DNA from: a virus
Virus record (IMG/VR): IMGVR_UViG_3300045988_173968
DNA length: 64,000 bases
Reading direction: 5' to 3' (one strand)
Shown: piece by piece, positions 6,213 through 60,983 of the stretch
How positions within the stretch are numbered: the first letter of the stretch is position 1
Layout: every line of letters begins with the position of its first letter
Notes under the pieces: model-generated
Seen by the model: the letters and a program-made list of their open reading frames with translations, nothing else
The model's database searches: none
What the model was told of the DNA's origin: nothing
Made by a program: the position numbers and the translations under genes

Positions 6213-9200
6213 TCATTCAACCCTTTCGTACTTAATGAGATACCAATATCCGCTTTGATTCTTTTGGACATCAGAAGCGTATATAATGTCTCCCTTGCTG
6301 ATTTTGTTCTTGTTATATGTAGCTGTTCTGATTGTTAATCTCGCATTCTTCCCTGTTCCCATTGAACGAGTAAAGCAGGCATAGCCCCATACATCACCGG
6401 AAGTTTTAGACTTTAATGGCACCAAATCGGTTACTATCAGCTTCCGTCTGTCTTCCGGTACTCCTGTCTTAATGTCGATATATCCAAGTATATCGAGCTG
6501 GTTTTGCATTTTAACTTTAAGGTTAATTTCAGAGATATTGAGGCTTTTGATATAGTCCTCGCATTCATGGAGAATAGCTGTCATATCCGTAATTGTGTAG
6601 GTTTTCAGCTCTTCGTTTTTCGCATTACGATCTGTTGCATGTCTGGCAACGATATGCTCCAACTCTGAACCAGCAAGCTTATCTTTGCGGATCGTCTTCA
6701 TTGTTCCCTGTTTAAAGAAATCAAACATCCGCATTATCCGAGACAGCTCTGCGCTATTCCCGAATTGCTGGAAATAATCAATTTGGATAAGCGGTGTTAC
6801 TTTTGCTTCCTTGATAGATCTCTCATTGAGCCAGCTCAGCACATCAACGAAATATTTAAAATCATTTTTGCTACACTGATATAATTCACGAGCGAGTGTC
6901 TTGCCAAAGCCTTTGACCGATGTAAGCGACTTGGTTATGATGCGTTTCTCCACATCTGCAATGGGAGCCCTGTTATCTTGTCCGTATCTATATGGCAAGA
7001 ACTTAATACCGAAGTATTCCTCAGCCTCTCTCTTAGCGTCTTGAGCCCTGTCTTTGTCGCCCTTTTCTTCCATCTGGTTTATGAAAACCTCGTAGAACTC
7101 AACCGGATGATGAGCTTTGAGCCAAGCGCCGTACAAGCTATCCAATGACACACAATAGGAGTGAGAGTTCGATGTAACGATGCCGGTTGCCGTGACAAAA
7201 TTGTGTGCCGGGTCTGACATTTCAACATCGTATGTAAGTTCTTCGCCCAACTTTTCAATAGTGGCAATCTTTTTGAGTAACGGCTGCGGGGATGCTTTAT
7301 CAATTTTGATTTGATAAACCATTTCGGGTGACATCCAGTAAAGCTCATCGCCAACAGATAATTCGTAGAGCTGCTTGTCGCCGCTTGGTGTCGGGAACTT
7401 GTGATTACCCGTACATTTAATGAACATGCCGTGACCATTTTCGAGCGTCACCTTATAAACTGGTTGTTTTCCTGCTGGACGAATGTCAACAATTTTGTTC
7501 TTCGCCAGCCCAGCTTTCCCAAAAGAGTAGCCGTATCCATAACCACGCCGAGCATATTCCATGTGGAGCGGATGTTCCTGGTCATGCATGGCTTTGTACA
7601 TTGTCTCTACGGTTTCCATGCGAGAGTCATACTTCATAATGAATGTGTCACCGGATACACAAGCGTTGAATGAATAACGGCTGGAGTCTTCGATAATTGT
7701 CCACAGGTCGCCCGCCAGCTTCTCTGCTTCTTTTCCTGGCTTCTTTTCGTCCCGAATGATCGCCGCCGCAAAGCCAGAGATGAATTTGTCTTTATATGAT
7801 AAGACCTTTTCTACTCTCTTTTTTGCTATATTTTTGATTGCCGTGTAACACTCCGACATAGGAATTCCTGCGTAATGTAGTGCTGCCATTTCCATCTCCT
7901 GATACAGGACGAAGCTGTTTGGCATTTCCTCTGTCTGGATTAGTTCGTCGAAAGATTTGACCCCGTACTTAAACGGCTGGCGGCTTTCGAATGTCTTGTA
8001 CATGCTTGCAAATCCAGGTCTTATTGCTGCCACAAATGCGCAAAGCTCCGAAATGTTGGTCGGGTGATACTTCGCAACGCGAGCTGTTGTGCCTGTTTTT
8101 TCGACCTGATTGATACCGATAGTTGCACCCTTGGCGTAAACATCCCATGCCGGATCATTCGGAGGACACATTTCTAAGAGCTCCGTTACGCTCGGAGGCT
8201 CCATTCCTATTCTGTCGAAGACCTTATACATCAGGTCTACAACCTTTACTGTAAGTAAATCATTCTTAAGAAAGTGATATTCTTCTGCCCAATGGCCGTC
8301 CATCAGGCAACAGAGATTGTCCTTGATCCTCACCAAGCCAATCTCCTCTCGAATACTTCCTTGATACAGGAGGTAGGAGCAAGGTGCAATACTCCAGCTT
8401 GATATCAAGCCTCGAAAATCATTGCTCTTATCGAATACCTCCCAATATTGTTTGTCGATGTATTTATGTACATCAATGTCTTCTTTTTCATCTTCATCTG
8501 CGTGTTTAAGAGCAGTTTCATATCTCTTTATCTGCTCAGACACTTCGTTGGCAAGCTCAAACGGGACACCCTGTGATTTTGCGTACAGTTTCCATGCGGC
8601 AGATGCCTTTGCTGTGCCGTATGCAATCATCGGATACGCATGGTCATCACCAAGAACCTGTTTTTGAGCCAAGGCAAATGGCTCCTGATTGTCTACATTA
8701 AAGTCAATATCGGGCAGAGATCCACTCTGCAATATTCTTTCTGTAGACATAAATCGTTCTGGGTACATCTTGACTGTAGCCGCAATGCGGTCTACTTCCG
8801 TAAAGCCAAGAAGCATATTCGTAACAAAGCTAACTGCACTGCCACGACCACTTTTCGTCAAATGACCGCCGTTTTTCTTGCCTTGCTTAATTACTTCGTG
8901 GTTAATGATAAAGTAGTCCGCCGTCTTAGTGTCAATTACGGTTTGAACTTCCTTTGCAATTTCATCAATGTAATGTTTCCGCTTTTCTGGAGGAATGCCT
9001 TTCGAATAAGCCTTAAATCCGTTCCTAATGAGCTGCTTATAGATTTCATCTCGTTCCTCTTGAGGTTTATCCAAATACAGAGACGGCATCTTGATATCTT
9101 TGTTGAATATCGGCGAGTCATACTCCTCAACTTGCAAAAACACATTCGTGTTCTCAATTGCTTCTCTTATCTCGCCGTCAGACAACACACACTGTTCTGC

Positions 9201-9917
9201 AAACCGTCGGTACGCTTCATCACCACCAGGATAGTCAAGATACCACCCTTCTTCTTGCGGATAAGTAAGACCTTTTGAAACAAGATAGTCTGTCCGGTCT
9301 TGCGCCTGTTTAGGATAGATATAATGACTATCACATCCCATGATAAGTGGTATCCCACTTTCTCTATGGATACGGATGATTCTTTTGTTCAGTTCCCGCT
9401 GCGACTCCGTATTGTGGTACTGAACCTCCAAATAGAAGTTGCGCCTAAAATGTCCGAACAATGCAGCAACAAAATTCTCGACATCTTCGTAATCCCAAAA
9501 CTTAATGCAAGCAGAAGTCACCCACACATCATCGGGTGGCAAAGAGAGAATCAGTTCTTTATCTAATCTTGCCTGTCCGTAGAAGCCTGTATCATTCGCT
9601 TCGGACATGACATTATTTAACGCTCTACGACCTTTCTCGTTCTTTGCTCCGATGAATATATGGCAGTTAGTACGGTCTTTCTCAAATCTGTCGTTGACCT
9701 AATAGGCTTCAACCGATTCAAGGAATTTGAGACCATATTTTTTAGCCACCTCGTAAGCCTCGATGTATCTCCCTTGGTATCCGTGTTCACACGAGGACAG
9801 AATGCCGTGGCCAAGCTCCACCGCTCTTTTGGCATAGTCCTCGTAGTTTACGGTACTATCGGAGATCCGAGGGTTTGTAAACCAAGAATGTTTGTGATAA
9901 TTCTGATAAACAAACAA
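6213..9917 (-). CDS. dnaE: DNA polymerase III alpha (DnaE-like) with N-terminal PHP domain, one in-frame TAG and a mini-intein
   Basis: Track ORFs 9699-9917 (PHP: NYHKHS...SCEHGY) and 6213-9608 are in one frame joined by TAG 9701-9699 (..SVEAY[TAG]VNDRF..). Shows IRPGFASMY and the FN/SHS motif split by the intein. TTG start. Confidence 0.85.
7167..7661 (-). other. Mini-intein (about 165 aa) inserted in the DnaE YSFN|SHS motif
   Basis: Starts CVSGDTFI (block A), has CTGNHKF (block B TxxH), and ends HNFVTATGIVTSN|S (blocks F/G). The flanks rejoin to SFNA-SHSYC. Confidence 0.7.
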
Positions 9918-9930
9918 TCATATGACCTCC

Positions 9931-11868
9931 TCACTTTCCGAATATCTCTTCTTCCGTATCAACAACTGGATACGGCACATGGTCTATGTATTCTGTAGTA
10001 TCCCAAGCGTAATTGTGCTCAAACTCTTCCGGCTTCGTAAAGAACCGCCGAGACGGCACATCGTAATATAAACCGCACTCGAGATTTGCTCGACCTCTTA
10101 AGCGGTCTTTCTGAACGCTAACGACCACATCGTATGGGCATGATGGCTTAACCCACCCGTCACCCTTTGCGTTTGGAATACCAGCCTTTTCTTTCTTTCC
10201 TATTCGTCTAAGGCTAATAGCTCTGTGCGCCAAATTGATTAAATTTGCCGTACCACTCAACTCATACAAGCCCACATTTTCCGTAAGGTCTTGCATCTTT
10301 CTCGGATGGCAAACCAATATAGTACAAACATTATATTTCATGCTAAATTGAATTAGCCAGTTGACGAGTTCGGTTTGTTTCTGCCACTTGTTGTCGTCGT
10401 TTGCACCGAGGTCAATAGTCGTCATGTTGTCAAGTAGAAACAGCTTGCTGCCGTACTTACGAACCGAATCTATCATCGAATCTTGTATCGATTTTACATC
10501 GTTGCTCCAATCGTCTTTATACAGCATGAGCTTTCCGCGATAGAAGTCGGATATTTTCTTCTTTGCCTCCGGCTTAACTCGGTAGTATGTAGCACCTTCT
10601 GGGCTAACATATTCCACGAGGTGGCGTCTCCCAGCCAATAGGTACATAAGCCAGTTGCGGCTCATCCACGCCGGCAGTTCCTTTGAATACACCCAGCAGT
10701 TTTTCTCTTGGTCGAGTGCTTGACAAATTAACTGGTAAAGAAAGGAAGTTTTGCCGGAGCCAGGTGTCCCTGAAATAATAGTAAAGCTTCCATAGAACAG
10801 CCTCATCAATTCTTTGTCCAAAGCATCAATGCCAAACCGAATGCCATCTATATCTGTTAGATCAACATCTTCTACATCAGCAAAATCGACGAGCGATGGA
10901 ACTGGGCTATCCTGAGCGTTGACAATAGCTTCTAAGACCTTATCTTTGCCGAAGAAGTAAAGCATCTCATTTATATCTTTTACGGAGTGTTTTTTGCCTT
11001 CTTCATCTTCGTAATATTCTGGGATATTGACAATCTTGCATCTCCAACTACCCAAACGAGGCACTACTTCTTTGACAAATTTTAAACCTGATTCATCGTT
11101 GTCGTGAGCAATAATGATTTCTTTGAACTGCTCCAACCAATCCTAGCATTCCGGAATCCAATGAGTGTTTCCGTCGCCGAGAGGAATTGAAACGGCATTG
11201 ATAAACCCCGCCTCAACCGCTGCAGCACAATCAAGCTCTCCACTTGTAATAAGCAACGGCTGATCGACATTGATGCGGTTCATATTAAACAATATTGGAG
11301 TTGTGTCCGCACCTTGTTGGCACCAGTTCTTATTTTCACCGTGTACTATTTTTCTCGTCGGACGGTATTTAACCATCGTAAGAGTATCGTTAAGGTCGTA
11401 GTAGTTAAATGCGATGTTTCCTTTAGAATCTTGGCGAATATCAAGATAGTCTACGGTTTCTTTGCTGATTTTTCGTTTTGCCAAATAAGCATACACAGCA
11501 TCCTTTACCTCGTTCTGCTCTGGTTTTGGATAGTTATACGACCGTTTTGTTCGAACGCCTAATTCGCCAAACCCGTAAGCTACGCCGGCAAGCTCAAACA
11601 ATTTTTGAACCGCTTGCATATATGTAAGACCCTGATGCATGAAAGCATCAATAACATCATAGTTTCTCCCGCAAGCTCCAAAGCAATGGCAGCTGTTTGT
11701 TTTAGATGAAAATATAAAGGATGGCGTATTCTCCGCATGGATTGGGCAACAGCAACGCTTATGCACCGAATCGAAATCCTTAACCCCAAAGCCATCCATA
11801 ATCAATTCAAAATTTCTGTCTCCAAGCTTTTCTTTTGCCTTTTCAATCAGTTCTCTCGGTACATTCAA
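9931..11868 (-). CDS. Bifunctional primase-helicase (Zn-finger primase, Toprim, P-loop helicase), read through one TAG
   Basis: CCCPIHAENTPSF..CHCFGACG zinc finger. The Toprim domain is split by TAG 11145-11143 (..HWIPEC[TAG]DWLEQF..AHDNDESG). Walker A GTPGSGKTS and Walker B LFLLDN. Confidence 0.8.
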
Positions 11869-12731
11869 TCATCACTCACCTCGTCTTTTGCTGCGTATGG
11901 GCAGTTTTTCGAAAATCCACAAAGGTTTTTGCAGTAAAACTCGTCTCGTTCCGCAGGATATTCCTCACAGTCACGAATATTTTTTACCGTAGTCCTTACC
12001 CAACTTTCTGCTTCCTCGTATGCGTCTTTATCAAATGGGAGCTCTACTGTTTTCTGTTTCCTAAACATTCCAAAGCAAAGCTTATCCGGGTATTTACCGT
12101 ATGTATTCTTGATGTTCCTTGCATAGAGATAAAGCTGTCTAGCGTATTTCTTCAGCTCTTCTTTATCCTTAAATTTTGCTTTACTCTTCCAATCCTAAAC
12201 TGTAATCTCTCCGGTGTTTTTGTCCTCAAGAATCAAGTCAATAAAGCCCTTGATGCGGAAGTCATCAAAATCATCCGTAAACTCATGCTCGGCATCAATG
12301 ATTTTCATGTTCTTAAAGCCGTCAAAATTCTCAAAGAAGCGAACACCATCGTTGAAGTATGACTCTTTCAGATCCACATATGCATTCCATGGGAAATCCT
12401 TAGTGATCTCTTTTTCAAATCTCTCTTTGAAAGAATCAACAAGCTCCCACTCAGCGAGATCACCCCGCTCATACTCTTCAAGGATTCCATGAACCATTGT
12501 GCCATATTGCGAGAATGCATTTTCCTCATTCACATATTTTGTAAAGAACGGGCAGTGTGTTCTCTCAATTGGAGACGACAACGGATCAAAGTCTGCCAAC
12601 GCATGCTCACAACACTGTTCTTCCCTATTAAAGGAGGAACACGCCTCACAACACTTGATGTAGTTGAGCAGATATCCATACTTGCATCCATTAAATGAGG
12701 ACAATTTTGAAAATGAATAGTTTTCTTTCAA
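11865..12731 (-). CDS. PD-(D/E)XK (Cas4/RecB-like) nuclease with a C-terminal Cys cluster, read through one TAG
   Basis: Track ORFs 12195-12731 and 11865-12068 share a frame. TAG 12197-12195 sits inside the motif GFIDLILEDK..ITV[TAG]DWKS. C-terminal CKNLCGFSKNCPY. Confidence 0.7.
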
Positions 12732-16794: not shown

Positions 16795-17022
16795 CAACAT
16801 AGATTTGAGGGGAAATTCCCCTCTGTGGGTGGGCCAGGGTCGCATCGACCAGCCCGGTTGGACACTTGGCAGGCGTAGCATTCTCCTGCGTCCCTTTTGG
16901 CTCATAGAGCGTGCGGTTGCTACGAAATCTACCACCTCAAGTGCTGGTTTACTGCTTTTTAGTGTCGTGCAGTTCGACTCTCTCTAAATTGGAAATTTCC
17001 TTTTGGGCATGTTACTGCCCAA
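16795..17022 (-). ncRNA. Unclassified structured noncoding stretch immediately 3' of the CUA tRNA candidate
   Basis: No credible ORF. Helices seen by eye: TTGGGCA/TGCCCAA (17003-17022), CGTAGCA/TGCTACG, GGTGG/CCACC, and palindrome GAGGGGAAATTCCCCTC (16807-16823). Class unknown. Confidence 0.3.
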
Positions 17023-17100
17023 TGGCACGGGCCCCCGGACTCGAACCGGAATTGCATGGATTTAGAGGCCAGCATGTTTACCAATTACTTGCAGACCCGC
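17023..17100 (-). tRNA. Candidate amber-suppressor tRNA (anticodon CUA) with a non-canonical anticodon stem
   Basis: 7-bp acceptor stem (two G-U pairs), discriminator G plus encoded CCA, T-arm TCCGG-TTCGAGT-CCGGG, and a canonical 7-nt loop CU-CUA-AA. Only 3 Watson-Crick pairs in the anticodon stem and a weak D stem. Confidence 0.55.
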
Positions 17101-17122
17101 TTATGTAATAAAATCTGTCCGC

Positions 17123-17212
17123 TCAAAACAGCCAAAACCTTGCGAACACCGCAAAGTAAACAACTATCGTAATTGCGCCAGAGATCAGCGCAATCTTTAC
17201 ATGTTCGTTCAT
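17123..17212 (-). CDS. Small hydrophobic peptide (29 aa)
   Basis: MNEHVKIALISGAITIVVYFAVFARFWLF. ATGA overlap with the upstream gene. Confidence 0.3.
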   Translation of the reverse strand: MNEHVKIALISGAITIVVYFAVFARFWLF

Positions 17213-17493
17213 AAAATACACTCCTTTACTATTCTTTTATATCTTTCTGGATCTGACCTCTCCAGTTCAGCAAACGAAATCATATTGTCTTCTTTTTCAG
17301 GCTTGTACCTACCGGAGGCATCAAAAAAAGAGCCACTTATCCTTGCGGTAAAGTGACCCTCGACTTCATCATAAAAGATCTCTGCGTCCGGGAATCTTCC
17401 TTTTAAAATATATGCGAACTAATAGCAATTTCCAGCGAACCAGTGTTCGTCTGGTCTGAACCTCCGGCGAATAAATTCTTCTACCATAACCAT
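17209..17493 (-). CDS. Hypothetical protein read through one TAG
   Basis: MVMVEEFIRRRFRPDEHWFAGNCY[TAG]FAYILKGRFPDAEIFYDEVEGHF.. TAG at 17421-17419. RBS AGGAAG. TGA stop. Confidence 0.5.
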
Positions 17494-17515: not shown

Positions 17516-18463
17516 CTATTTTGCCTCGTCTGGATAAAATGTTCTGATGTAGTTTGCGTAGTCGTATTTGGCGTATTTTCTTTTAGCCCATGCTCTTTTG
17601 TAATCCATTGAATCCCAATTTTGCTTGGAAGCAAAAATATTATAGCTGAGAATACCTGTCTCGTCTTCAATCTGCTTCGTTTCCCAGCATATCCCAGATA
17701 AATTGAGTGCGTTTGCAGATAGTTCAAAGCCTGTTTTTGATACACGTTTCCATACGGAGTTCATAAAATTCTTGAACTTTTCCTTATCTAGCGTATTCCA
17801 TGTTCTAATAAGCATTCCATTATCACATCTTTTTTGGGAGTTACAAACTTCTCCTTCTTTTCTATAAATATTGAAAAATTTTGCGTCCCTTGTTTTCAAA
17901 ACAAACGGAATTATACTCGGAGGAATTATGTGTGTCTCGCCGCCAGCAGTTAAGCTATTTTCTCCAACATCCTGAATCTTAATATTTAGAATATCATCCG
18001 TTGAAAATCCTTCGAAATATAGCCAAAGGATAGTTGCATATTGACACTCTGGCGTGCCCATGTGAATCGTAGGAAACCATTCAATGAACTTTCTTGAAAG
18101 TTCATAAGGTGATTTTACAAGCATTTTCCCTACATCTTTTTCATACAGTCGAAGCACCACGGCATCGCTACTTATAATGGATTTCTCTATATAACCTTTA
18201 CTTGTGCCATAAGCAAAATATTTCAACAGCGCTTTGTTTATTTCGCTTTGATATTGCGCCAAAACAGGTATTTTTTTATTCGCTTCCAGCAATTCATTTG
18301 TGGTAAAGAAAATAAGATCCTTGCCAAGCTGCTCTTCCGATGGGAAGAACTTTTTCAGCAATATTTCGCTTTTTTTAGCCTCTTTCGTATTAAGAGATGA
18401 ATAGAATTCCTGTTTTAACTCCATTTTGCTAATCCTCCTTGAGATTATGTAAGAGTATAGCAT
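17516..18463 (-). CDS. Hypothetical protein (315 aa), one of only three ORFs ending at TAG
   Basis: Track ORF. Ends at TAG 17518-17516. Read-through would add about 49 codons and overlap the next gene. Confidence 0.55.
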   Translation of the reverse strand: MLYSYIISRRISKMELKQEFYSSLNTKEAKKSEILLKKFFPSEEQLGKDLIFFTTNELLEANKKIPVLAQYQSEINKALLKYFAYGTSKGYIEKSIISSDAVVLRLYEKDVGKMLVKSPYELSRKFIEWFPTIHMGTPECQYATILWLYFEGFSTDDILNIKIQDVGENSLTAGGETHIIPPSIIPFVLKTRDAKFFNIYRKEGEVCNSQKRCDNGMLIRTWNTLDKEKFKNFMNSVWKRVSKTGFELSANALNLSGICWETKQIEDETGILSYNIFASKQNWDSMDYKRAWAKRKYAKYDYANYIRTFYPDEAK

Positions 18464-18511
18464 AAATTTGAGTTAAACTCAACTTATCTCCACTAAACAC
18501 TTTGCTTTCTC

Positions 18512-18895
18512 CTATACGGCAATTAAATCTTCTAAATTGAGAAACGAAATAGAGCTTGATGCCAATGTGTTTGCTTTAGCGATCTCTCTCATGTATTTAC
18601 CTGGTAATGAAGTAATATATTTCCCAAGCTTGTTTTTAGGGAAAGAGATGGGGTTTTCGCAAAGAGCTATGCTATCTCTTGGGAGCCCAGTCTCTCCTTT
18701 AGGTAAGAGAACATGAGTTGGCATTTTTGACTTTTTCAAAGCGGTTGTCAGTGGAATAAGAACAACATTCGGACTAAACTTATTTCCAAGGTCATTTTGC
18801 AAAACTATATGTGGTCTATTTCCCCCTTGTACTGTCCCATTGGTTTGTATATCCGCGAAAAAAACATCGCCAATTTTGATATTATCCTTTTCCAT
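18512..18895 (-). CDS. MazF/PemK-family toxin-like endoribonuclease with no obvious antitoxin
   Basis: GDVFFADI..GGNRPHIVLQND..VVLIPLTT matches the PemK/MazF fold pattern. Ends at TAG (18514-18512), and a TGA follows 11 codons later. Confidence 0.65.
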   Translation of the reverse strand: MEKDNIKIGDVFFADIQTNGTVQGGNRPHIVLQNDLGNKFSPNVVLIPLTTALKKSKMPTHVLLPKGETGLPRDSIALCENPISFPKNKLGKYITSLPGKYMREIAKANTLASSSISFLNLEDLIAV

Positions 18896-18943
18896 AAGAA
18901 CTAAACTCCTTTAATTTCTTGGTTTCTTTTTCTTCATGGCTTA

Positions 18944-18971
18944 ATAATATCATAAAAAAAAGTATTTGCAA
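18944..18971 (-). promoter_or_regulatory. Sigma70-like promoter upstream of the MazF-like gene
   Basis: Minus strand reads TTGCAA, 16 nt, TG-n-TATTAT (extended -10). Confidence 0.4.
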
Positions 18972-18980
18972 TACATAATA

Positions 18981-19010
18981 AAGAAACAGACCGTATTTAA
19001 ATACGGTCTG
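18981..19010 (-). terminator. Rho-independent terminator
   Basis: Palindrome CAGACCGTATTTAAATACGGTCTG followed by TTTCTTTATT on the minus strand. It overlaps the stop of 18997-19278. Confidence 0.6.
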
Positions 19011-19278
19011 TTCTCAATGTAGCAAATTTCCCATGCTTCCCATATAAACAATGTATATCTTCTCCCTGTGAAACCGCTTTCGATATATTAAATATCATAA
19101 AAACAGTCTTCATATTATCATCAAGTAAGCACAGATGGTTTTTGCTTTTTCCAACGATTTTAAAACCATAAACATCAAAAATTGCCGCATAACCAGCGTT
19201 ATAATCTTCAATGGTAATCGTCGTCTTCTTCCCTTTTGGTATGTATTCTTCTATTTCTTTCTCTCTAATCAATACCAT
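18997..19278 (-). CDS. Hypothetical protein
   Basis: Track ORF with a TAA stop. No family recognised. Confidence 0.5.
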   Translation of the reverse strand: MVLIREKEIEEYIPKGKKTTITIEDYNAGYAAIFDVYGFKIVGKSKNHLCLLDDNMKTVFMIFNISKAVSQGEDIHCLYGKHGKFATLRTDRI

Positions 19279-30889: not shown

Positions 30890-31525
30890 TTACATCACAC
30901 GAAAATCTTCATATTTGATTTTCACAATGATGCGCTTGCCTGTGCGGTCTCGAAGCTCAACAGCCGGACGCCCAACAACGCCTTCCATAAATGCTGTGCC
31001 CATCGTGGACTTTGGATGTCCCTCAACAAAAGCAATTGCTTCGTCGATAGTACCCTCCAATACGATTGGAACTACATCAATACCAAGCATAGTTGCCGTC
31101 TGTTCTACCCACTGGCGTTCCTGATAGTTCTCTCCGACCAAAACATCAAAAAGGATAAAAGACACATCCTCCCGATAATTTCCGCCTTTTTGGATCTTCG
31201 GGCCATATCCCTCGCCAAACAGAATGACCTGTTTCTCGCCGTATGTCTGTTCAAACAGTTGCTCGACCTCCGGAGTCGAAAATGTATTGTTAAGGTACTC
31301 TAAGAGGAACTGCGGGATCGTAGCCTTGTCTGTTCTGCCAGCGAAGCTAATGTAGTGCCCATCCCAAATGACGCGAATATTGGTGCCGTCGAACTTCTCT
31401 GTGAACTGCCACTTGCTGTCCTTGAGATACTCCACGGCTTCGTTCCGCCAGTTGCCACGAATCAGCTTCTTTGTTCCGGTAGTGTCTCTGTTAAACACTG
31501 TTTCAATTTTGTTATACTCAACCAT
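30890..31525 (-). CDS. ATP-dependent RNA ligase-like nucleotidyltransferase
   Basis: Motif I TEKFDGTN (KxDGxN), FGEGYG, FILFDV, EGVVGRP, and motif V IIVKIK. Confidence 0.65.
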   Translation of the reverse strand: MVEYNKIETVFNRDTTGTKKLIRGNWRNEAVEYLKDSKWQFTEKFDGTNIRVIWDGHYISFAGRTDKATIPQFLLEYLNNTFSTPEVEQLFEQTYGEKQVILFGEGYGPKIQKGGNYREDVSFILFDVLVGENYQERQWVEQTATMLGIDVVPIVLEGTIDEAIAFVEGHPKSTMGTAFMEGVVGRPAVELRDRTGKRIIVKIKYEDFRVM

Positions 31526-34733: not shown

Positions 34734-35882
34734 TTACGCAGCAACATCGTCTGCCATCATCTTGATGACATCGCAATGATACTTTTTGTTGTACCAAGAG
34801 ATCACATAATCAAAATACTCAGGTTCCACATTGCTATAATAAGAAAGCTTGCCACGCAGAGTCATTACTTCTTCCGGCGGCCAGCCCTTACCATCTTTTC
34901 TTGCAACTATGTAGTTATTCAGCATTGCCTTGAACACCTTTTTATTCTCGTGTCCAACAGTGATTTTGTTGTCTTTGTTGATCATCAAACCAAGACACCA
35001 GTTTCGACCTGCTCTGCTGCCGTAATGTGTTTTTTCTTTCTTAATGGTGTATGGCGCATCGAACTTCTTAAATACATCGTTCATCATCTCGATGACGCCC
35101 ATGAACAAGAAACCTTTCTTGGAAGAAACCGTAGCATCATCGGCGTAACGAGTGTAGACAAAATCGTTAGTCTCGCTGGCTCTCAATCGTCGAGAGATTT
35201 CATGGTCGATGGGAATCATAATGACATTAGTAAGAAGCGGAGAAATCGGAGTTCCCTGCGGCAGTCCACCATCGAGGAAACAGAGAGAGATAGCATCTCG
35301 TAGCGCTTTCTCGCCATCCTCATATTTAACAACCTCGCAGAAAGGATAAATCACGGATAACATCCGCATTGTGAATTCCAGCGTAGTCGAACCAAAGAAA
35401 TTGCTCAAGTCCGTCTTGAGGTACCAATTACTGTTGTTTCTTTGATGTACTTTCAGCGCATCAGTAGTGCTTCTGCCCTTGATGTACGCAAAAGCAGCCG
35501 TATGATATAGAACCTTAAAATCATTCTCGAAGATTGCCTTGAGACTATACAGAGCTTGTTTCAGTTCGTCATCCGGCGCATCGATCTGACGCCAACCGCC
35601 GGATTTCTTTGGAATTTTGAAAGAATTATAATGTTCTCGCATGTTGTTCGCATCAAATTTCGGCTGGTAAGTACGATTAAAACTCTTCAGCTTCCCGATA
35701 AGATACGGTGCTCGCGCCATTTCTTTTAGCTCCTGGGGGAGCTTTTTGTATTCGTAGGTTCTTGTGGATGTCCCGAAGTCCACTCCGTTAATATACGGGC
35801 TGAGATTTTTCACACCAAAGAGAACATCCTCAAGGGTAAGTTGCTTCTTTGCTCTTGTCATAAATGTGGTTACATATGGCAT
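34734..35882 (-). CDS. Reverse transcriptase (retron-like or defence-RT-like, 382 aa)
   Basis: FKIPKKSGGWRQIDAP, YLKTDLSNFFGS, LPQGTPISPLLTN, YTRYADDATVS (YADD) and LGLMINKDNK. No maturase or endonuclease domains. Confidence 0.85.
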   Translation of the reverse strand: MPYVTTFMTRAKKQLTLEDVLFGVKNLSPYINGVDFGTSTRTYEYKKLPQELKEMARAPYLIGKLKSFNRTYQPKFDANNMREHYNSFKIPKKSGGWRQIDAPDDELKQALYSLKAIFENDFKVLYHTAAFAYIKGRSTTDALKVHQRNNSNWYLKTDLSNFFGSTTLEFTMRMLSVIYPFCEVVKYEDGEKALRDAISLCFLDGGLPQGTPISPLLTNVIMIPIDHEISRRLRASETNDFVYTRYADDATVSSKKGFLFMGVIEMMNDVFKKFDAPYTIKKEKTHYGSRAGRNWCLGLMINKDNKITVGHENKKVFKAMLNNYIVARKDGKGWPPEEVMTLRGKLSYYSNVEPEYFDYVISWYNKKYHCDVIKMMADDVAA

Positions 35883-36488: not shown

Positions 36489-37172
36489 TTAATAGGTATC
36501 AATGGCAAAATTAAAAGCGTCCACCAGAATAATCTTCTTAAGGACACCTTTATTTACAAAGTTTACGAAGTTGGAAACCCCAAAAGAAACGATAGTCCAA
36601 ATCGTTCCCGCAACTGAAAGAGATACATTGCAGGCAGATACAGGAGTTGCCGCTCTTGCTTCCTCCTCGGTAAACTCCATAGAGCGAAGCAGATTGTCCT
36701 GCATCTTAGGATCAGACCAGTTGGCTGCGTAGTGTTGAGCATCAGTAAGCCGTGTCCGGAAATCAAAGACAGCTTTGATGTTCATGTTTGTTGCGTTTTC
36801 CTTGACGATTCTCCGCCGAAGCTCAATGCTATCTACGCAGAGGAAAACATAGCCGCTCAGACGCTGCTTGTCATATCCCTTATCGAAGATTTTCAGCTCT
36901 GAATCGATATCTGGATTGATTTTATGAAGCATTTCGGCAACCGCCGCAGTCTTGGGCTTGCCAATATCCTCAGTCGTAAACATCTGATTGGCAAGGTTAT
37001 GTGCCTCAACGACATCGAAGTCGTAAAGAGAAATGTTCGTCAGCCCCAATCGGGCCAAACAAACCGCCAAAGTAGAACCGACGCTGCCACAGCCGATAAT
37101 ATGGATGCGGGTCTTCGCACACTTGTCTGGATTAAAGAACTCGAAGCTCTTTGACAAATCCATCATCTGCAT
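36489..37172 (-). CDS. ThiF/E1-like adenylyltransferase (Rossmann domain only, 227 aa)
   Basis: IHIIGCGSVGS (GxGxxG) followed by LYDFDVVEAHNLANQ. Overlaps the JAB gene by 41 nt. Confidence 0.75.
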   Translation of the reverse strand: MQMMDLSKSFEFFNPDKCAKTRIHIIGCGSVGSTLAVCLARLGLTNISLYDFDVVEAHNLANQMFTTEDIGKPKTAAVAEMLHKINPDIDSELKIFDKGYDKQRLSGYVFLCVDSIELRRRIVKENATNMNIKAVFDFRTRLTDAQHYAANWSDPKMQDNLLRSMEFTEEEARAATPVSACNVSLSVAGTIWTIVSFGVSNFVNFVNKGVLKKIILVDAFNFAIDTY

Positions 37173-38058
37173 ATTCCTCCTCTAAGTCAATATCTTCGGT
37201 AATTCCACCGCCTATAACCTCAGCTTTTACCGAGTTTTTGGTTTTGGAATAATCCTCACTTTCGTTTTTTTTATCCTGTTTCTTACCGTAGTTGCCATAC
37301 GGATAATCATAGTCGTCCCAAAAATCTTCCCATCGACTACCGCATCCTCCGTAACCACCATATCCGTAGTCATATGTGCCACTCTTTTTAGAGCTATTGT
37401 AAGCACCTGTACCATGATAGGTATATGTCTTTGCCTTTACGAGTTTTTTGGACTCCTCCAGGAACTCACCGTTATCGAACTCAATAGAGACATCTATATC
37501 TCCATTCTCATAAAGCACATTGTTAGCGAGGTCGTAAATCTTAGCATTGTGCTCGTTCTTTTTATTCCAAATCACAAACACCCAAAATGTATCAGGTGAG
37601 CTATTCCCTACCCTGGTTGCCTGGTCAGTGAGATCAGTACCACTCGGGCTTGTCCCCATATTTACATGGCTGTGACCTTGGAAACGGATACGGTTGTAGT
37701 CCTCATCGGGGATTTTCTCGAGAAAAGCTCTGTGCTCATCCTCATCCGTGTCCACATTCACACCAGTAACGACTTGCGGGTACACAAAAACATCTGAGAT
37801 TTTGAAGCCGGCATCACCCACTCTGTCTACATATCCATACCATGCTACCTCAGAGTCAAAATTGTTGACCAAAGTAATCATCTTGGAATAGGCTTCGGGG
37901 GTGAAAATAATCTTCGCTTTACCCGTCTTCTCGCTTTTGAACTCCTTGGTGTATGTAAACTTGCCACCCTCGAAGCTCTTAGCGGATGAGATCTTCTCCG
38001 TGAATTCTCGAATCATTTCCGCAATTGTCTCTTTGGGAATGTTAATCATTTTAGCCAT
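37132..38058 (-). CDS. JAB/JAMM (MPN+) metallopeptidase with a G/Y-rich C-terminal region
   Basis: E (SEVAWYGY) followed by GHSHVNMGTSPSGTD, which is HxH-x7-S-xx-D. The C-terminus ..DGFVKELRVL resembles the family tail without GG. Confidence 0.75.
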   Translation of the reverse strand: MAKMINIPKETIAEMIREFTEKISSAKSFEGGKFTYTKEFKSEKTGKAKIIFTPEAYSKMITLVNNFDSEVAWYGYVDRVGDAGFKISDVFVYPQVVTGVNVDTDEDEHRAFLEKIPDEDYNRIRFQGHSHVNMGTSPSGTDLTDQATRVGNSSPDTFWVFVIWNKKNEHNAKIYDLANNVLYENGDIDVSIEFDNGEFLEESKKLVKAKTYTYHGTGAYNSSKKSGTYDYGYGGYGGCGSRWEDFWDDYDYPYGNYGKKQDKKNESEDYSKTKNSVKAEVIGGGITEDIDLEEEYADDGFVKELRVL

Positions 38059-39403
38059 TCTTCAACACCTCCATAGCTTCTTTCACGGTATGCACCGAAC
38101 CATCCTCGAACTCAATGAAACGCTCATTAGAAGAGCAGATCTTTTCAATGAAATTGGCGCCAACCGTCGAGTCATCAAAGTTGATATTGTGAGTAGAACC
38201 AATAGCCTGTTCAACTGCCCCAAGGTAATTTCTCTCACCCATCATACGATCAATGATTCGAGCATTACCACCCATGCAATGGAAACCGCAGAGATGAGGG
38301 TGAGGCAGATAAGTCTTGAGCTCTGCCAGATTTGTCTCTCTTTTATCTGGTCTCAAGGTACCAGCAACATCCAAGACAAAATGTGCCCAGGTGCGAATCT
38401 TGAATTTCGGATTCTCCCCAAAGACGCTATCCAAGAACAGCTTCATATCATTTTTGGACTTGATGTTCTTCCGCTCGCCATAGTTGCCATAAAAATAGCT
38501 GTATTCGTTATTGAGGCAACGCTCGAAGCTATCCTCATCAAAAGAGTCCAAATAACCCTTGACATAAAAGGAGATAAGCTCTTCGTCCGCATCTTCCAGG
38601 ATGAGATCCTTGCACCGGAGAAAGAACTTGAGAAATTCCCCTTCGTTGCCATCATTACGGCGAATTTTTTCTTCAAGAGCCGCAATTTGCAGGGTGTTAA
38701 AATGGTCTTTGTCGTAAAGGTCATCGAGCTGCCGAAGAAGATTCTCTATGTTGCTCTTAATTCTCGTGTATTCACTTTTCATTCGCTCCAACGAACTCTT
38801 CTCGAATTTCACATCAATGTCACTGAGAGCAGAGCGGATGAACATCTCACGCAGGTCAAGACGGTCATACAGTTTCTGAGATGAATCAGCAAACATATTT
38901 TCATCATTGCGAGAAATCGATTTCACGAGATCAAGCTCGTCGTTGTCGAGAGGCTTGCCCGCAAAGGTCGCAGGGAAGAGCTTCTGCACAATGCAAGCCA
39001 ACATACGACCAAATGACGAATCGAGCTTTTCGCTGTAGATGATGGAACGATTATTGTTTTCATCAATAAATGCCCAACCGACATCTTTTTGTTTGGAAAC
39101 GAAAAGACTTACCGGCTCATTCTGCTTGTAGCCAGCCGCAATAATGTCGGATTTATTCTCGCCAAGCCAAGACAAAGCGTTTTCACCGGAAATCAAATAG
39201 ACCGTGTTCCGCTCAGTTGGAATTGCATAATTGCTTTTTGCAATTTGGAGGTTGTATGTATTTTCCTTATCTCTGGGGTAGACCAGTGCTCTCAAGACAT
39301 GAGAATAACACTCCTCTCCGCCGATTGGTGTTACTGGGATATTGGTGCAAATCGTAGAAAACTTGTTGTCCGTAAATGTTGTGTTGCGAATACTTCGAAT
39401 CAT
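38051..39403 (-). CDS. Hypothetical 450-aa protein, first gene of the JAB/E1 operon
   Basis: Overlaps the JAB start by 8 nt. Has a central coiled-coil-like region and the C-terminal motif HPHLCGFHCMGGN. No family recognised. Confidence 0.6.
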   Translation of the reverse strand: MIRSIRNTTFTDNKFSTICTNIPVTPIGGEECYSHVLRALVYPRDKENTYNLQIAKSNYAIPTERNTVYLISGENALSWLGENKSDIIAAGYKQNEPVSLFVSKQKDVGWAFIDENNNRSIIYSEKLDSSFGRMLACIVQKLFPATFAGKPLDNDELDLVKSISRNDENMFADSSQKLYDRLDLREMFIRSALSDIDVKFEKSSLERMKSEYTRIKSNIENLLRQLDDLYDKDHFNTLQIAALEEKIRRNDGNEGEFLKFFLRCKDLILEDADEELISFYVKGYLDSFDEDSFERCLNNEYSYFYGNYGERKNIKSKNDMKLFLDSVFGENPKFKIRTWAHFVLDVAGTLRPDKRETNLAELKTYLPHPHLCGFHCMGGNARIIDRMMGERNYLGAVEQAIGSTHNINFDDSTVGANFIEKICSSNERFIEFEDGSVHTVKEAMEVLKNG

Positions 39404-42849: not shown

Positions 42850-42899
42850 TGGGGGAAGGCTTGGGATTTGAACCCAACAATGCCTTTCGGCAACCTTCC
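42850..42899 (-). ncRNA. tRNA-like minihelix: acceptor stem, T arm and CCA, but no D or anticodon arms
   Basis: GGAAGGT / TGCC-GAAA-GGCA / TTG / TTGGG-TTCAAAT-CCCAA / GCCTTCC-C-CCA. An upstream GCCTTCC (about 42975-42981) could pair alternatively with the 5' strand. Confidence 0.4.
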
Positions 42900-43103: not shown

Positions 43104-43560
43104 AGGTCTAGCTGGTTTTCTTGTTTCTCTCAAACCAGCAAAGCATCTATCTACGCAAGTTCAAACCGTAGCCATTGGATGAACTTTTTCTCGACCCGCA
43201 GGGTTAGATGCTTTACCCCGCTTGAACATTTTCGCAGTCCCTAGCGCCTCACCACAAAGTCTTTACTCTGTGGAGAGGTCTGAGCGTTAGGCAAGCTGTG
43301 TACACTATTGGCCAATTTATGCCATGCAATTAGCACTCGCCCTGCGGAATCGTACCGCACCCTCATAAACCGTACAGTATTAAGAATGGCCATTCCTACC
43401 CTCGGTGGTTTATGATTCGAACCTCGCTTTGCTGTACTGATGTAGTAATACGACTCGTGCCATCCAGCAGTTCACACGAGAAGTGTGGGTTGAAGATTTT
43501 TAATCGACCTTTTAGCTAGCTCTCACTTCTTGGATTAGCGCGACCCACAAATTGATATTT
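43104..43560 (-). ncRNA. Roughly 457-nt ORF-free structured spacer inside the tRNA array (large ncRNA candidate, class unknown)
   Basis: Only short, implausible ORFs. Many local helices. Short stretches recall RNase P or tRNA motifs (GGGTGCGGTA, GGTTCGAATC) but no complete known core could be built. Confidence 0.35.
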
Positions 43561-43629
43561 TGGTTTCGGGTGGACTTGAACCACCGACGCACTGGCTCCC
43601 AGCTGCTCTACCTCCTGAGCTACGAAACC
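43561..43629 (-). pseudogene. tRNA-like gene with a truncated anticodon arm (13 nt instead of 17)
   Basis: Normal acceptor (GGTTTCG), D arm (GCTC-AGGAGGTA-GAGC) and T arm (GGTGG-TTCAAGT-CCACC). The anticodon region is GCTGG-GAG-CCAGT, a 3-nt loop. No CCA encoded. Confidence 0.5.
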
Positions 43630-47971: not shown

Positions 47972-47995
47972 TTTTGCTCACTCCTCCTAAATGCT

Positions 47996-48115
47996 TCAGC
48001 CAAAAGCGGCGAACATTACGAACACAAATCCCCAGAAGAAAGCCCCTCCGAGGATCACTCCAAGGACGATTTTTACCCAGTCCATCAGGGTAAAATCCTT
48101 TGTTGCTTCAAGCAT
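47996..48115 (-). CDS. Small membrane protein (39 aa)
   Basis: MLEATKDFTLMDWVKIVLGVILGGAFFWGFVFVMFAAFG with a GGAGG RBS. Confidence 0.4.
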   Translation of the reverse strand: MLEATKDFTLMDWVKIVLGVILGGAFFWGFVFVMFAAFG

Positions 48116-48291
48116 GATTTTTACCTCCATACAGACTATTGCTCCAAACAGGCTTAATAGCATTTTTGCCATCTGGAATGCTTGCTTTCAGCCGCTTTTA
48201 CGCCTAAACAATTGGCATAAAAGCGTTGCCCGATACCCGGCACGAGGAGCCATCAAGCATGGGTATCTTTTCGCTCATTAAGGGATAAAGC

Positions 48292-52326: not shown

Positions 52327-52598
52327 TAGCCCATATTTTTTGCATTCTAACTGCAAAATTTGCAAACTGGTTGCAAAAAATTTTTAGAAAACCGCTTGAT
52401 CAATAGGCTTTACGGTACCTGTCCCTTAAAAGGAAATTATAAAGGCTAACAGTTTAACGAAAAATGGGCAAGGGTACATACGCAGGAAGAGGACGCTACC
52501 ATACCACTTGCCCCCAAGCCCCCATTGTATGTGCATGGTGGATACTGTACGCCAATGGAGGACAGTCATTATTATCTTTCGAGGACATATGTTTGTCC

Positions 52599-53846
52599 AT
52601 GAAATACACTTTTGGAAAGAAGGAATGTTTATTGAAGACAGTAAAAGTCTGCGACTCTATCATGGGCTCAGGCAAGACGAGTGCAGCGATACGGATGATG
52701 AACGAGGAAAGGGATAAGAGATTCATCTTTATTACTCCGTTCCTTGCTGAAGCTGACCGCATCGCAGAGGAATGCGAAAGCAGAGGTTTTACGGTTCCTG
52801 TTAAGGTTAAGGGCAGGAAACAGGAATGTCTGCACCAACTGTTGCGGGAAAAGAGGAATGTGTCCACCACTCACGCACTGTTTCTGGACAGTACGGAGGA
52901 GACTATCCGGTTAATTGAAGAAGGCGGATACACATTAGTTCTCGACGAGGTACTTGAACTGTTCGAGAGCAAGGACATCTCGGAGGACGATGTGAACCTG
53001 TTGCAGATTGGCGGAGTAATTGAGATTAAGGAGAACGGTTCTGTTGTCTGGCTAAACGAAGAGTATGATGGTGTGTTTGCGGACTATAAGGAGATGGCAC
53101 TGACTGGCGAACTTTATTACATCAATGATCGGCTGATGTTTTACTCCTATCCTGCTGATGTACTTAAGGCGTTTGAGGAAGTGTATGTGCTAACTTACAT
53201 GTTCGCCGCCCAGACACAAAGATACTACTTTGACATGCGCGGTATTGGTTATGAGTACATCGGAACAAAGAAGCTGCCGGACGGGGGGTACATTTTCACC
53301 GAACGGGCGGAGGTACCTGAGTACGCTAGACACCTTAAGGAAAAGATACATATTGTGGACAGTGAGAAGATGAACAGTGTAGGTAATGGGAAGTATGCCT
53401 TGTCTATGAGATAGTTCCAAGAGAGAGCCGAGCCGGAAGCCGTCGAGCAGATTAAAAAGAACCTACTAAATTATTTTCAAGCAATTAGTGGTTCCAAGGC
53501 ATCTGACCGCTTGTGGGCAACATACAACGTTTCCAAGGATAAGTTGCAGGGGCGTTATGGTCAAAGCTTTCTCTCCTTCAACTCTCGTGCGACAAATAGC
53601 TACAGAGACAAGACCTGTCTGGCGTATCTAGTAAATGTATTTATGAATCCATTTGAGTACAACTTCTTTACGGCGCAGGGCGTCCAGCCAGACCAAGATG
53701 GGTATGCACTGTCTGTTATGGCTCAGTGGATCTGGCGGTCGGCTATCCGCGAGGGCAAAGACATTGAGATTTACATACCGTCCAAGCGAATGCGAGACCT
53801 GTTGATTGCATGGTGCGATAGACTGGAGAAGGGAGAGATGCGGTAA
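52599..53846 (+). CDS. P-loop NTPase (helicase- or ATPase-like) read through one TAG
   Basis: Walker A IMGSGKTS and Walker B TLVLDEV. TAG at 53412-53414 joins track ORFs 52464-53414 and 53511-53846 in one frame. Start uncertain. Confidence 0.55.
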
Positions 53847-59699: not shown

Positions 59700-60983
59700 A
59701 TGATAGATTTCAAGAGAAAGGAAAACGAAACAGAAAATCAGTACCTGTGGCGGGTTGGCGTAGCTATTGAAAATGGTTCTGCTGGACTGACATAGGATGA
59801 GGCTGCTCCGCTTATCAATAAGGAATGGCGCGAAGATGAATCTGAATATCGTACATCTTCTGCTTACCGTAAGCCGGTGCAGTATGCCCTCCGTTTTATG
59901 GAGGACGGTGTGTTTGATGGCAAGAAGGATGGATTGTCCGAAGAACTAATCGAACAGAAATACGAGCTGACCAAGGAGCGTATGCGTCTGCGTGATGAGC
60001 GTCGAGCAATCAACGACCGCCTGCGGTCTGCCGCTCGCTTAGATCACCGTCTGGATTACCTCGGTGAACTTATTGAGAGCAATGGCCATGCGTCTTTTGG
60101 CAATATCCAGTTGCCGGAGCAGAGAACTATCAATCGCCGTAAGGCTGACATTATTGTTTCTTTGGCTGATTTGCACATCGGCGCATCATACTATAATTAT
60201 AATGGTGTGTATGACAGCGAGATGGCAAAGAAACGGCTTGTAGAATACTTGTCGTATGTCAAGGAAATAAAGGATACACACGACCCAGAGAATTGCCACA
60301 TCGTAATTCTCGGTGATTGCATTTCCGGCAATATACATAAGAATCTATCCGTTACGAATGGCGAGAGTGTTGTAGCACAGATTCAGCTCATGTGCGACTA
60401 TGTGAGCGAGTTCTGCGGCAGAGTTGGCGAGATGTTCGGTCAGACTGGCGGCAATGTAACTATTCATTGTGTTGCTGGAAACCATACTCGTCTCGATAAG
60501 AAGGAAGATGCTCTTCACGACGAGCGCCTGGATGATTTACTTCTTTGGTATCTGAGCAGATTCTTTGCAAAGGTTCCCAATGTGTCCGTTTCCGAAGAGC
60601 GCCTCGATAACGGGATTGACCAATTCATTATTCGTGGTCGTAGCTATGTCGCAGTGCATGGCGATTTCGACGGCTTCAACGAAGCTGGCGTATCCAAACT
60701 GGCGATGTTCCTTGGGTACAAACCAAATGTTGTACTGTATGGGCACAGGCACTTCCCTGCCATGACAGAATGTTCCGATGTGGTAATGGTGCAGAGCGGC
60801 AGCTTGGGCGGTAGCGGGGATCAGTTCACACTGGAGCATCGGATGCGTTCAATGCCTGCTCAGTCCGTTCTCGTTGTTAATAGCGATGGCGTTGTTGCTC
60901 ATTATCCTGTTAAGCTTGGTATTATTCCCTGTCTCTCCTACGACCTGGAAAAGTATCCTGCGGAGGAGGATGATATCCTGTGA
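59700..60983 (+). CDS. Protein with an N-terminal HTH-like region and a C-terminal Mre11/SbcD-like metallophosphoesterase domain, read through one TAG
   Basis: ATG at 59700 with a TAAGGAGG RBS. TAG at 59793-59795 (..SAGLT[TAG]DEAAPLINKEW..) is in frame with track ORF 59877-60983 (LADLHIG, ILGDCISG, VAGNHTR, YGHRH). Confidence 0.6.

Follow-up and report, generated by a model that had tools for sequence, protein, structure and literature searches.

A probable tryptophan-type amber suppressor tRNA with an irregular anticodon stem in a gut phage that translates TAG

The window analysed here is a 64,000-nt stretch of viral DNA (IMG/VR record IMGVR_UViG_3300045988_173968), which carries on its minus strand, at positions 17023-17100, a 78-nt tRNA-shaped gene with the anticodon CUA, the discriminator G73 and an encoded CCA. 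This gene is probably a functional, non-canonical amber suppressor of the tryptophan type, which would implement a code in which TAG stands for tryptophan. The broader picture of a gut phage lineage of ~108 kb, probably temperate on Bacillota, in which UAG means tryptophan by way of this one odd-stemmed tRNA, is also favoured, with somewhat more reserve. A preliminary description of the window had proposed a candidate amber suppressor serving a TAG-recoded phage, and this proposal agrees with the translated TAG codons of the phage, with the conservation of the tRNA and with its being the only CUA tRNA that was found.

The gene was called by ARAGORN only at relaxed settings (option -ps), at the position stated before, and the minus strand reads GCGGGTC TG CAAG TAATTGGTAAA CATG CTGGC CTCTAAA TCCAT GCAAT TCCGG TTCGAGT CCGGG GGCCCGT G CCA. 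The architecture given in the preliminary description was recovered throughout: an acceptor stem of 7 bp (two of its pairs being G.U in the relaxed ARAGORN drawing), the T arm TCCGG/TTCGAGT/CCGGG, a D stem with an A.A mismatch, the discriminator G followed by CCA, and a 7-nt loop CUCUAAA with CUA at positions 34-36 between U33 and A37. The anticodon itself lies at 17063-17065 (loop C32 U33 C U A A37 A38), within an anticodon arm at 17056-17072 whose stem consists of three Watson-Crick pairs (U28-A42, G29-C41, G30-C40) enclosed by the unpaired C27.U43 at the top and C31.U39 at the bottom. The alternative drawn earlier, a bulged anticodon stem of 6 bp with a 9-nt loop, is the minimum-energy fold of ViennaRNA. 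Canonical hallmarks of a tRNA are found in the 7-bp acceptor stem, G53-C61, T54-T55-C56, G18G19, U8, U33, the purine at position 37 and the 3' CCA, and the variable loop measures 5 nt in the ARAGORN drawing. A leader of 22 nt (17101-17122, minus strand) lies between the stop of a 29-codon open reading frame (ORF) and the 5' end of the tRNA, and the hairpin UUGGGCA-GUAACA-UGCCCAA (17003-17022, minus strand) follows directly after the CCA, without a U tract. This hairpin is possibly a 3' processing or stabilising structure; it was not called in a terminator scan, and a promoter and terminator scan around the tRNA gave nothing above background.

Two other assignments were tried and rejected. The label tRNA-Pyl is merely the one that ARAGORN attaches to any CTA anticodon. 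The criteria for this class were a 6-bp anticodon stem, a 3-nt variable loop, a small D loop lacking G18G19, and neighbouring pyl genes; G18G19, the T loop TTCGAGT and the 5-nt variable loop contradict it, and no Pyl-related domain occurred among the Pfam hits of the phage proteins. For a transfer-messenger RNA or an intron-containing tRNA, the ARAGORN options -m and -i gave nothing further.

With TAG taken as a sense codon, ORF pieces lying in the same frame fuse to whole proteins, and the suggestion that the phage is TAG-recoded is borne out by Pfam domains that cross in-frame TAGs in at least five genes. On the minus strand, the gene of the DnaE-type polymerase (6213-9917) has a TAG at amino acid (aa) 73 (9699-9701), which is spanned by the PHP domain (aa 7-168), and that of the primase-helicase (9931-11799) has one at aa 219 (11143-11145), spanned by Toprim_2 (aa 184-262). 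The TAG of the PD-(D/E)XK nuclease at aa 179 (12195-12197, minus strand) lies within PDDEXK_1 (aa 70-278), is followed by the DWK motif and is kept in four relatives. In the YunG-like gene just upstream of the tRNA, the TAG at aa 25 (17419-17421, minus strand; Phage_YunG-like domain at aa 19-85) is kept in all relatives. On the plus strand, TAG occurs at aa 317 of a DEAD-like helicase (gene 52464-53846, codon 53412-53414) and at aa 32 of a calcineurin-like phosphoesterase (gene 59700-60983, codon 59793-59795). The gene of a YonO-like two-barrel RNA polymerase (56206-59013, plus strand) is made up of three ORF pieces in one frame and holds three TAGs, at 56380-56382, 57286-57288 and 58240-58242 (aa 679), the second of which precedes the catalytic DCDGD motif. 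These TAGs are conserved over independent assemblies and are therefore not sequencing errors. Taken together, the predicted proteins demonstrate that the phage reads through TAG.

The automatic gene set contained 26 in-frame TAGs, about 14 of them in credible genes, as compared with 204 TGG codons. The credible ones are mostly single in their genes (DnaE, primase-helicase, nuclease, NrdG, helicase, RNA polymerase, phosphoesterase and others) and cluster in genes for replication and transcription. The structural module of a near-identical relative is almost free of TAG, with four in-frame codons, three of them in small ORFs, within the C-terminal third, and the fourth early in a 1744-aa protein; the two tyrosine integrases contain none. 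A few genes, for example that of a 315-aa MrpR-like protein, may still end in TAG. A recoding of TAA or TGA was rejected, as the same-frame neighbours look like separate genes. As a separate observation, three alleles of the MazF gene with 63% identity share an in-frame TAG ten codons before the end, and the tail beyond it is conserved.

The search for another reader of UAG was extended beyond the window by means of five IMG/VR contigs and six metagenome contigs of the same phage (~95-99% identity), which is present in human gut samples such as ENA ERZ809074, ERZ857984 and ERZ1673696. Contig 3300045988_150250 was walked from the RNA polymerase gene to the contig end, equivalent to 47.6-104.5 kb on the scale of the window, and contig 160855 was walked to 107.7 kb. 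Relaxed ARAGORN found no other stop-anticodon tRNA in the 64-kb window, and in the walked parts of both contigs there was no tRNA at any ARAGORN threshold and no combination of a CUA loop with a T-loop motif. Pfam, run on the larger proteins, and a motif scan revealed neither a phage tryptophanyl-tRNA synthetase (TrpRS) nor a release factor; the sole GGQ hit of the motif scan was a fibre-like protein.

The tRNA is identical in relatives L001-L005, L069-L073, L227-L231 and L233, and the flanks vary. Among six genomes, not one column is variable in the 100 nt formed by the tRNA and its leader, while variable columns make up 3-8% of nearby coding sequence and 20% of the spacer directly downstream. 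The 33-nt block at 16990-17022 that holds the hairpin has one variable column among six relatives, and L229 carries a substitution in the loop of this hairpin. As judged from these alignments, the tRNA and its leader are under purifying selection.

The preliminary description had called for a search for covariation among homologues, and this was answered by one metagenome allele, L232. It differs by six substitutions, all of them in stems; no existing pair is broken and the loops are untouched. The change of A11 to G converts an A-U pair into G.U, the pair G29-C41 is replaced by A-U through compensatory changes on both sides, and U43 to A turns C27.U43 into C.A, which is still unpaired. In the T stem, the first pair changes from U.G to C-G and the second from C-G to U.G. 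The simulation made for L232 gave P = 0.016 given that all six substitutions are in stems, and P = 0.14 if the six may fall at any place in the tRNA. The anticodon stem has both of its terminal mismatches in either allele, which suggests that they are kept rather than tolerated. Between the two possibilities left by the preliminary description, a functional tRNA of unusual geometry or a decayed one, conservation and this allele favour the former. Further homologues were sought in several collections. In IMG/VR, an exact 20-mer and a loose pattern of D loop, CUA loop and T loop retrieved identical copies and 63 unrelated CUA tRNAs only. The 75 SHMT-linked loci of more distant phages held no homologue of the tRNA; they contain syntenic tRNA arrays, some with ordinary CUA tRNAs. 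Searches of the genome collection for tRNA homologues and of the INPHARED phages at the DNA level gave no match.

A number of observations weigh against a working suppressor. ARAGORN makes no call at default settings, and the gene reaches 15.5 bits on the Rfam model RF00005, whose gathering score is 29, with an E-value of 0.6-4.5 even in a short search; the six canonical tRNAs of the window (39-45 kb) score 51-67 bits on the same model. The folding energy has a z-score of +0.48, so that the RNA is no more stable than shuffled sequence. Several canonical features are lacking, namely the 5-bp anticodon stem, a full D stem, nucleotide 26 and A14 (position 14 is U), and three pairs are non-canonical. 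Anticodon stems of other than 4 or 5 bp make up 0.2% of bacterial tRNAs (PMC13092985), which makes a stem of three pairs extreme. With a single variant allele, the covariation is supportive and not conclusive. The search for a CUA tRNA covered about 108 kb, all but a few kb at the genome ends, and a host-encoded suppressor could also read UAG. By sequence statistics alone, the raw tRNA match is not better than chance; the significance of the gene derives from context, conservation and covariation and not from the match score. The preliminary description had regarded silence of the tRNA predictors, together with a better CUA tRNA elsewhere, as counting against its proposal. The first was indeed found, since both predictors run (ARAGORN and Rfam) were silent at default; the second was not, as no better CUA tRNA occurs elsewhere in the genome searched.

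The low scores, the unfavourable z-score and the three mismatched pairs would all be explained if the gene were a decaying pseudogene and UAG were read by a host suppressor, by an undetected tRNA or through low-level natural readthrough, and the window does hold other degenerate tRNA-like pieces at 43561-43629 and 42850-42899. This is nevertheless unlikely. Decay should bring pair-breaking changes, yet the sequence is invariant in about a dozen assemblies next to a spacer that is 20% variable, and all six changes of L232 preserve the pairing. Moreover, essential genes of replication and transcription require that UAG be decoded, and the ~108 kb contain no other CUA tRNA.

The amino acid to which TAG corresponds was deduced from alignment columns of homologues taken from loci around the RNA polymerase and SHMT genes, and of 120 database homologues of DnaE. 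At aa 73 of DnaE, 112 of the 116 residues in the 120 homologues are tryptophan, within the motif EAYWVKD, for which the window has EAY-TAG-VND; read as tryptophan, the peptide across this codon is ...FLESVEAYWVNDR. Tryptophan likewise occupies the column of helicase aa 317 in 41 of 41 homologues and that of phosphoesterase aa 32 in all 40 homologues with a sense codon there. The column of RNA polymerase aa 679 holds tyrosine in 47, tryptophan in 25 and phenylalanine in 4 cases, and that of aa 361 mainly tyrosine or tryptophan; at aa 219 of the primase-helicase, all three homologues found have tyrosine. Glutamine is essentially absent from the columns of DnaE aa 73, helicase aa 317, phosphoesterase aa 32 and RNA polymerase aa 679.

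Between relatives of 75-99% identity, TAG and TGG replace each other at four positions in credible genes, and in both directions. The window has TGG at aa 196 of the helicase, where L149, L150 and L216 have TAG; at helicase aa 317 and RNA polymerase aa 679 the situation is reversed, with TAG in the window and TGG in the same three relatives. At aa 3 of a 394-aa protein, the TGG of the window is replaced by TAG in eight relatives. No exchange between TAG and TAY was seen in any credible gene among the relatives compared, and the sole TAG/CAG exchange concerns codon 3 of a doubtful plus-strand ORF (47991-48281). Columns and exchanges together demonstrate, at the level of codons, that TAG corresponds to tryptophan and not to glutamine. 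A tyrosine identity, to which two RNA polymerase columns might point, was rejected on account of the class I tRNA with G73, the columns invariant for tryptophan and the lack of TAG/TAY exchanges.

The tRNA has features that fit this assignment. Its loop CUCUAAA equals the loop CUCCAAA of tRNA-Trp genes of related phages with C35 changed to U. From the bacterial tryptophan identity set, in which G73 is the major determinant (PMC9976931, PMC12135181), it matches G73, C34, A36, G3-C70, G4-C69 and G5-C68. With covariance models built from tRNAs of related phages, it scored 42.7 bits on the tryptophan model and 31.0 bits on the glutamine model, the latter with the anticodon arm mis-aligned, and this margin of +11.7 is the largest among the tRNAs in the window. 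We infer that the tRNA is charged with tryptophan by the TrpRS of the host.

Here too some points tell in the opposite direction. Three elements of the tryptophan set are not present: C35, a major TrpRS determinant, is U35, as needed to read UAG; A1-U72 is G1.U72; and G2-C71, a determinant in B. subtilis, is C2-G71. Other canonical tRNAs of the window reach 29-47 bits on the tryptophan model, and the covariance evidence is therefore moderate. Whole-sequence similarity to 526 phage tRNAs (about 50 of 78 positions identical to many isotypes) assigns none. In addition, the amber suppressor derived from tRNA-Trp in E. coli is charged with glutamine (PMC9976931), so that charging with tryptophan would depend here on the host enzyme.

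The E. coli precedent also bears on the possibility of a working suppressor that inserts glutamine according to genetic code 15, as happens in recoded phages of the crAss-like group and in others. Among the determinants of the glutaminyl-tRNA synthetase are G73, a weak 1-72 pair, G3-C70 and U35, glutamine is the only meaning reported for recoded TAG in phages, and annotation pipelines translate the TAG of this phage as Q. Such a protein is P0001 (L227; ENA ERZ28639104 scaffold_54662), which is 96% identical to the YunG-like protein and has Q at the site of the TAG. This residue comes from a code-15 gene caller, the DNA of L227 having TAG at this site, and P0001 was the only match in a homologue search with the YunG-like protein. 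By such calling, proteins of phages with TAG as tryptophan are stored with the wrong residue. Against glutamine stand the tryptophan columns, from which it is nearly absent, the exchanges of TAG with TGG, with TAG/CAG confined to the one doubtful ORF, and the poorer fit of the glutamine model. G10, G2-C71, G36 and U38 of the glutamine identity set are also absent. A glutamine-inserting suppressor is accordingly regarded as very unlikely.

Just as improbable is a tRNA-like element without a decoding role (a processing mark for downstream RNAs, an anticodon-nuclease decoy, an integration-site mimic or a reverse-transcriptase primer): it would suit the position directly upstream of two structured RNAs, skipping-rope and DUF3800-XI, and a phage that has a tRNA-like gene almost without an anticodon loop, an RNA ligase, a reverse transcriptase and two integrases, but the perfect loop U33-CUA-A37A38 in a UAG-dependent lineage (a chance of about 1 in 64 for the anticodon alone), the loss of the skipping-rope RNA from several relatives with an unchanged tRNA, and the invariant loops with co-varying stems are what a decoding tRNA would show.

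For the tryptophan-type suppressor, the following course of events can be proposed. The gene would be transcribed from the minus strand, probably along with its two upstream neighbours, the YunG-like gene and the 29-codon ORF, and the transcript would be processed to the 78-nt tRNA with its CCA already encoded. The host TrpRS would attach tryptophan on the basis of the matching identity elements, and the CUA anticodon would pair cognately with UAG. A CUA tRNA charged in this way would lead to the reading of the ~14 sparse in-frame UAGs of the phage as tryptophan. The unpaired C27.U43 and C31.U39 would then be a retained feature and not damage, with the weak stem probably improving competition with release factor 1, as argued by analogy with the tRNAs described below. 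As the anticodon stem is unpaired at both ends, standard tRNA finders miss the gene.

An unpaired top pair of the anticodon stem is known to raise stop-codon reading by tRNA-Trp, both as C.U in Blastocrithidia and in the C27A mutant of E. coli (PMC13092985). The tRNA-Trp species with a 4-bp anticodon stem (Blastocrithidia, Condylostoma, Ca. Zinderia and E. coli C27A) resemble the present tRNA in the unpaired top pair, which in Blastocrithidia is likewise a C.U mismatch, and in serving to decode a stop codon as tryptophan (PMC13092985). They differ in having the anticodon CCA, which reads UGA by near-cognate pairing, whereas CUA is cognate to UAG here. They also keep the lower four pairs, whereas in the phage tRNA 31-39 is mismatched as well and three Watson-Crick pairs are left. 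According to work cited in the same source, E. coli Su+7 likewise combines a tRNA-Trp body with the change of C35 to U that gives CUA, unpaired mutants of tRNA-Trp-CUA read even UAA, and a tRNA-Thr bearing CUA with a G27.A43 mismatch suppresses UAG better than the fully paired form (PMC13092985). In the work cited there, the anticodon-stem mutants of Su+7 and the G27.A43 tRNA-Thr2 with CUA agree in that an unpaired 27-43 improves or broadens stop reading (PMC13092985). The variants of Su+7 and tRNA-Thr2 are laboratory mutants, and Su+7 is mostly charged with glutamine in E. coli (PMC9976931), whereas the natural phage tRNA appears to mean tryptophan.

The closest functional counterparts are the Sup-CTA tRNAs of crAss-like, Lak and Topaz phages and phAss-1, which use genetic code 15. 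They share with the present case a phage-borne CUA tRNA and in-frame TAGs in conserved genes, a host that is probably a standard-code member of the Bacillota, and the lack of any phage synthetase or release factor that could be found. The gene stands 5' of the recoded block, which is the usual placement of Sup-CTA (10.1101/2022.06.29.495998). The difference lies in the amino acid, glutamine there and tryptophan here; for phAss-1, which infects Bacillota, TAG is read as glutamine (PMC10607447). A survey of recoded phages observed only TAG read as glutamine and TGA as tryptophan (10.1101/2021.08.26.457843). In the recoded phages described so far, late and lysis genes are recoded (10.1101/2021.08.26.457843), whereas here it is the early genes, each of which has about one TAG. 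Of the 68 other phage CUA tRNAs that were fetched, most have regular anticodon stems, and the present one differs from them in escaping the standard tools. Phrase searches of the literature for TAG or UAG read as tryptophan found no report for a phage or a bacterium. To our knowledge, the only natural code in which TAG means tryptophan is the plastid code of the Balanophoraceae (NCBI table 32). This is a genome-wide reassignment in a plant plastid of an unrelated lineage, where no virus imposes its code on a host that uses the standard one.

If true, TAG to tryptophan would be a further phage code beside TAG for glutamine and TGA for tryptophan; existing tools hard-wire TAG to Q. About half of the TAG-recoded phages have no detectable Sup-CTA gene (10.1101/2021.08.26.457843), and the authors of Mgcod suggested that non-canonical tRNAs escape prediction (10.1101/2022.06.29.495998); the locus at 17023-17100 would be a concrete example of a suppressor tRNA missed in this way. 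It also offers a natural test case, in a bacterial virus and for UAG, of whether a shorter anticodon stem promotes stop reading. The recoding of early genes departs from the 'lysis timer' model of other recoded phages, and would make the whole early programme conditional on the suppressor tRNA. A compact natural amber suppressor that delivers tryptophan could furthermore be of interest to genetic-code engineering.

Mismatches at the top of the anticodon stem were also seen in phage tRNAs with the ordinary anticodon. The tRNA-Trp(CCA) genes of L165, L175, L183 and L184, phages with 62-63% RNA polymerase identity, have a U27.U43 mismatch at this place (e.g. L183, 18709-18783), and RNAalifold on 12 phage tRNA-Trp genes gave a consensus anticodon stem of only 4 bp.

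Up to ~50 kb the genes of the window are on the minus strand, beyond that on the plus strand, and the tRNA stands directly upstream, in the order of transcription, of the TAG-containing replication genes on the minus strand. Relatives of the RNA polymerase are prophages in Oscillospiraceae, 'Clostridiales bacterium CCNA10', Paenibacillus and Halalkalibacter, and the host is therefore probably a member of the Bacillota. The 29-codon ORF (17123-17212, minus strand) encodes the hydrophobic peptide MNEHVKIALISGAITIVVYFAVFARFWLF; at its start it overlaps with the YunG-like stop codon in the sequence ATGA, and 22 nt separate its end from the tRNA. Downstream of the tRNA, a skipping-rope RNA (16861-16945, 43 bits) and a DUF3800-XI RNA (16809-16856, 44.7 bits) lie in tandem on the minus strand, both above the Rfam threshold. 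The skipping-rope copy is cleanly missing from L003/L072 and from the type of L231-L233, and the tRNA is unchanged in several such relatives.

A second odd tRNA-like gene is located at 43561-43629 (minus strand; Rfam 50.8 bits), with good acceptor, D and T arms. Its anticodon arm, GCTGG-GAG-CCAGT, has a 3-nt loop and no usable anticodon, and default ARAGORN misses the gene. Within the tRNA cluster, a RAGATH-36-like RNA was found at 43221-43362 (minus strand; 55.5 bits, gathering score 70). A stretch of 50 nt at 42850-42899 (minus strand) gave a partial tRNA-like hit, with 21-23 bits on each of the two home-made tRNA models, and may represent a fragment of a tRNA.

Most close relatives have unrelated sequence in place of the cassette at 17584-19203, which encodes the 315-aa MrpR-like protein and the MazF/PemK toxin. 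In L149, L150 and L216 (10654-10938), the YonO-like RNA polymerase gene carries a 283-bp insertion, corresponding to 57942/57943 of the window, which is without it; this could be an intron or a mobile insertion. The DnaE-type polymerase shows a weak match to an intein-splicing domain at aa ~803-915 (22.5 bits, below the cut-off), and the database homologues of its N-terminal part are mostly ~403 aa long, a length which suggests that the gene is split or interrupted in relatives. Domain matches further identified, all on the minus strand, an RNA ligase (30890-31525), a reverse transcriptase (RVT_1, 34734-35882) and a ThiF/E1-like protein followed by two proteins without a family match (36489-39403); this set may represent tRNA-repair or anti-defence genes. 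In many related large gut phages (L074-L148), the SHMT gene is situated within or beside a tRNA array, and several of these arrays contain odd calls of their own, such as 'anticodons' of 2 or 4 nt and a tRNA-Ile(AAT).

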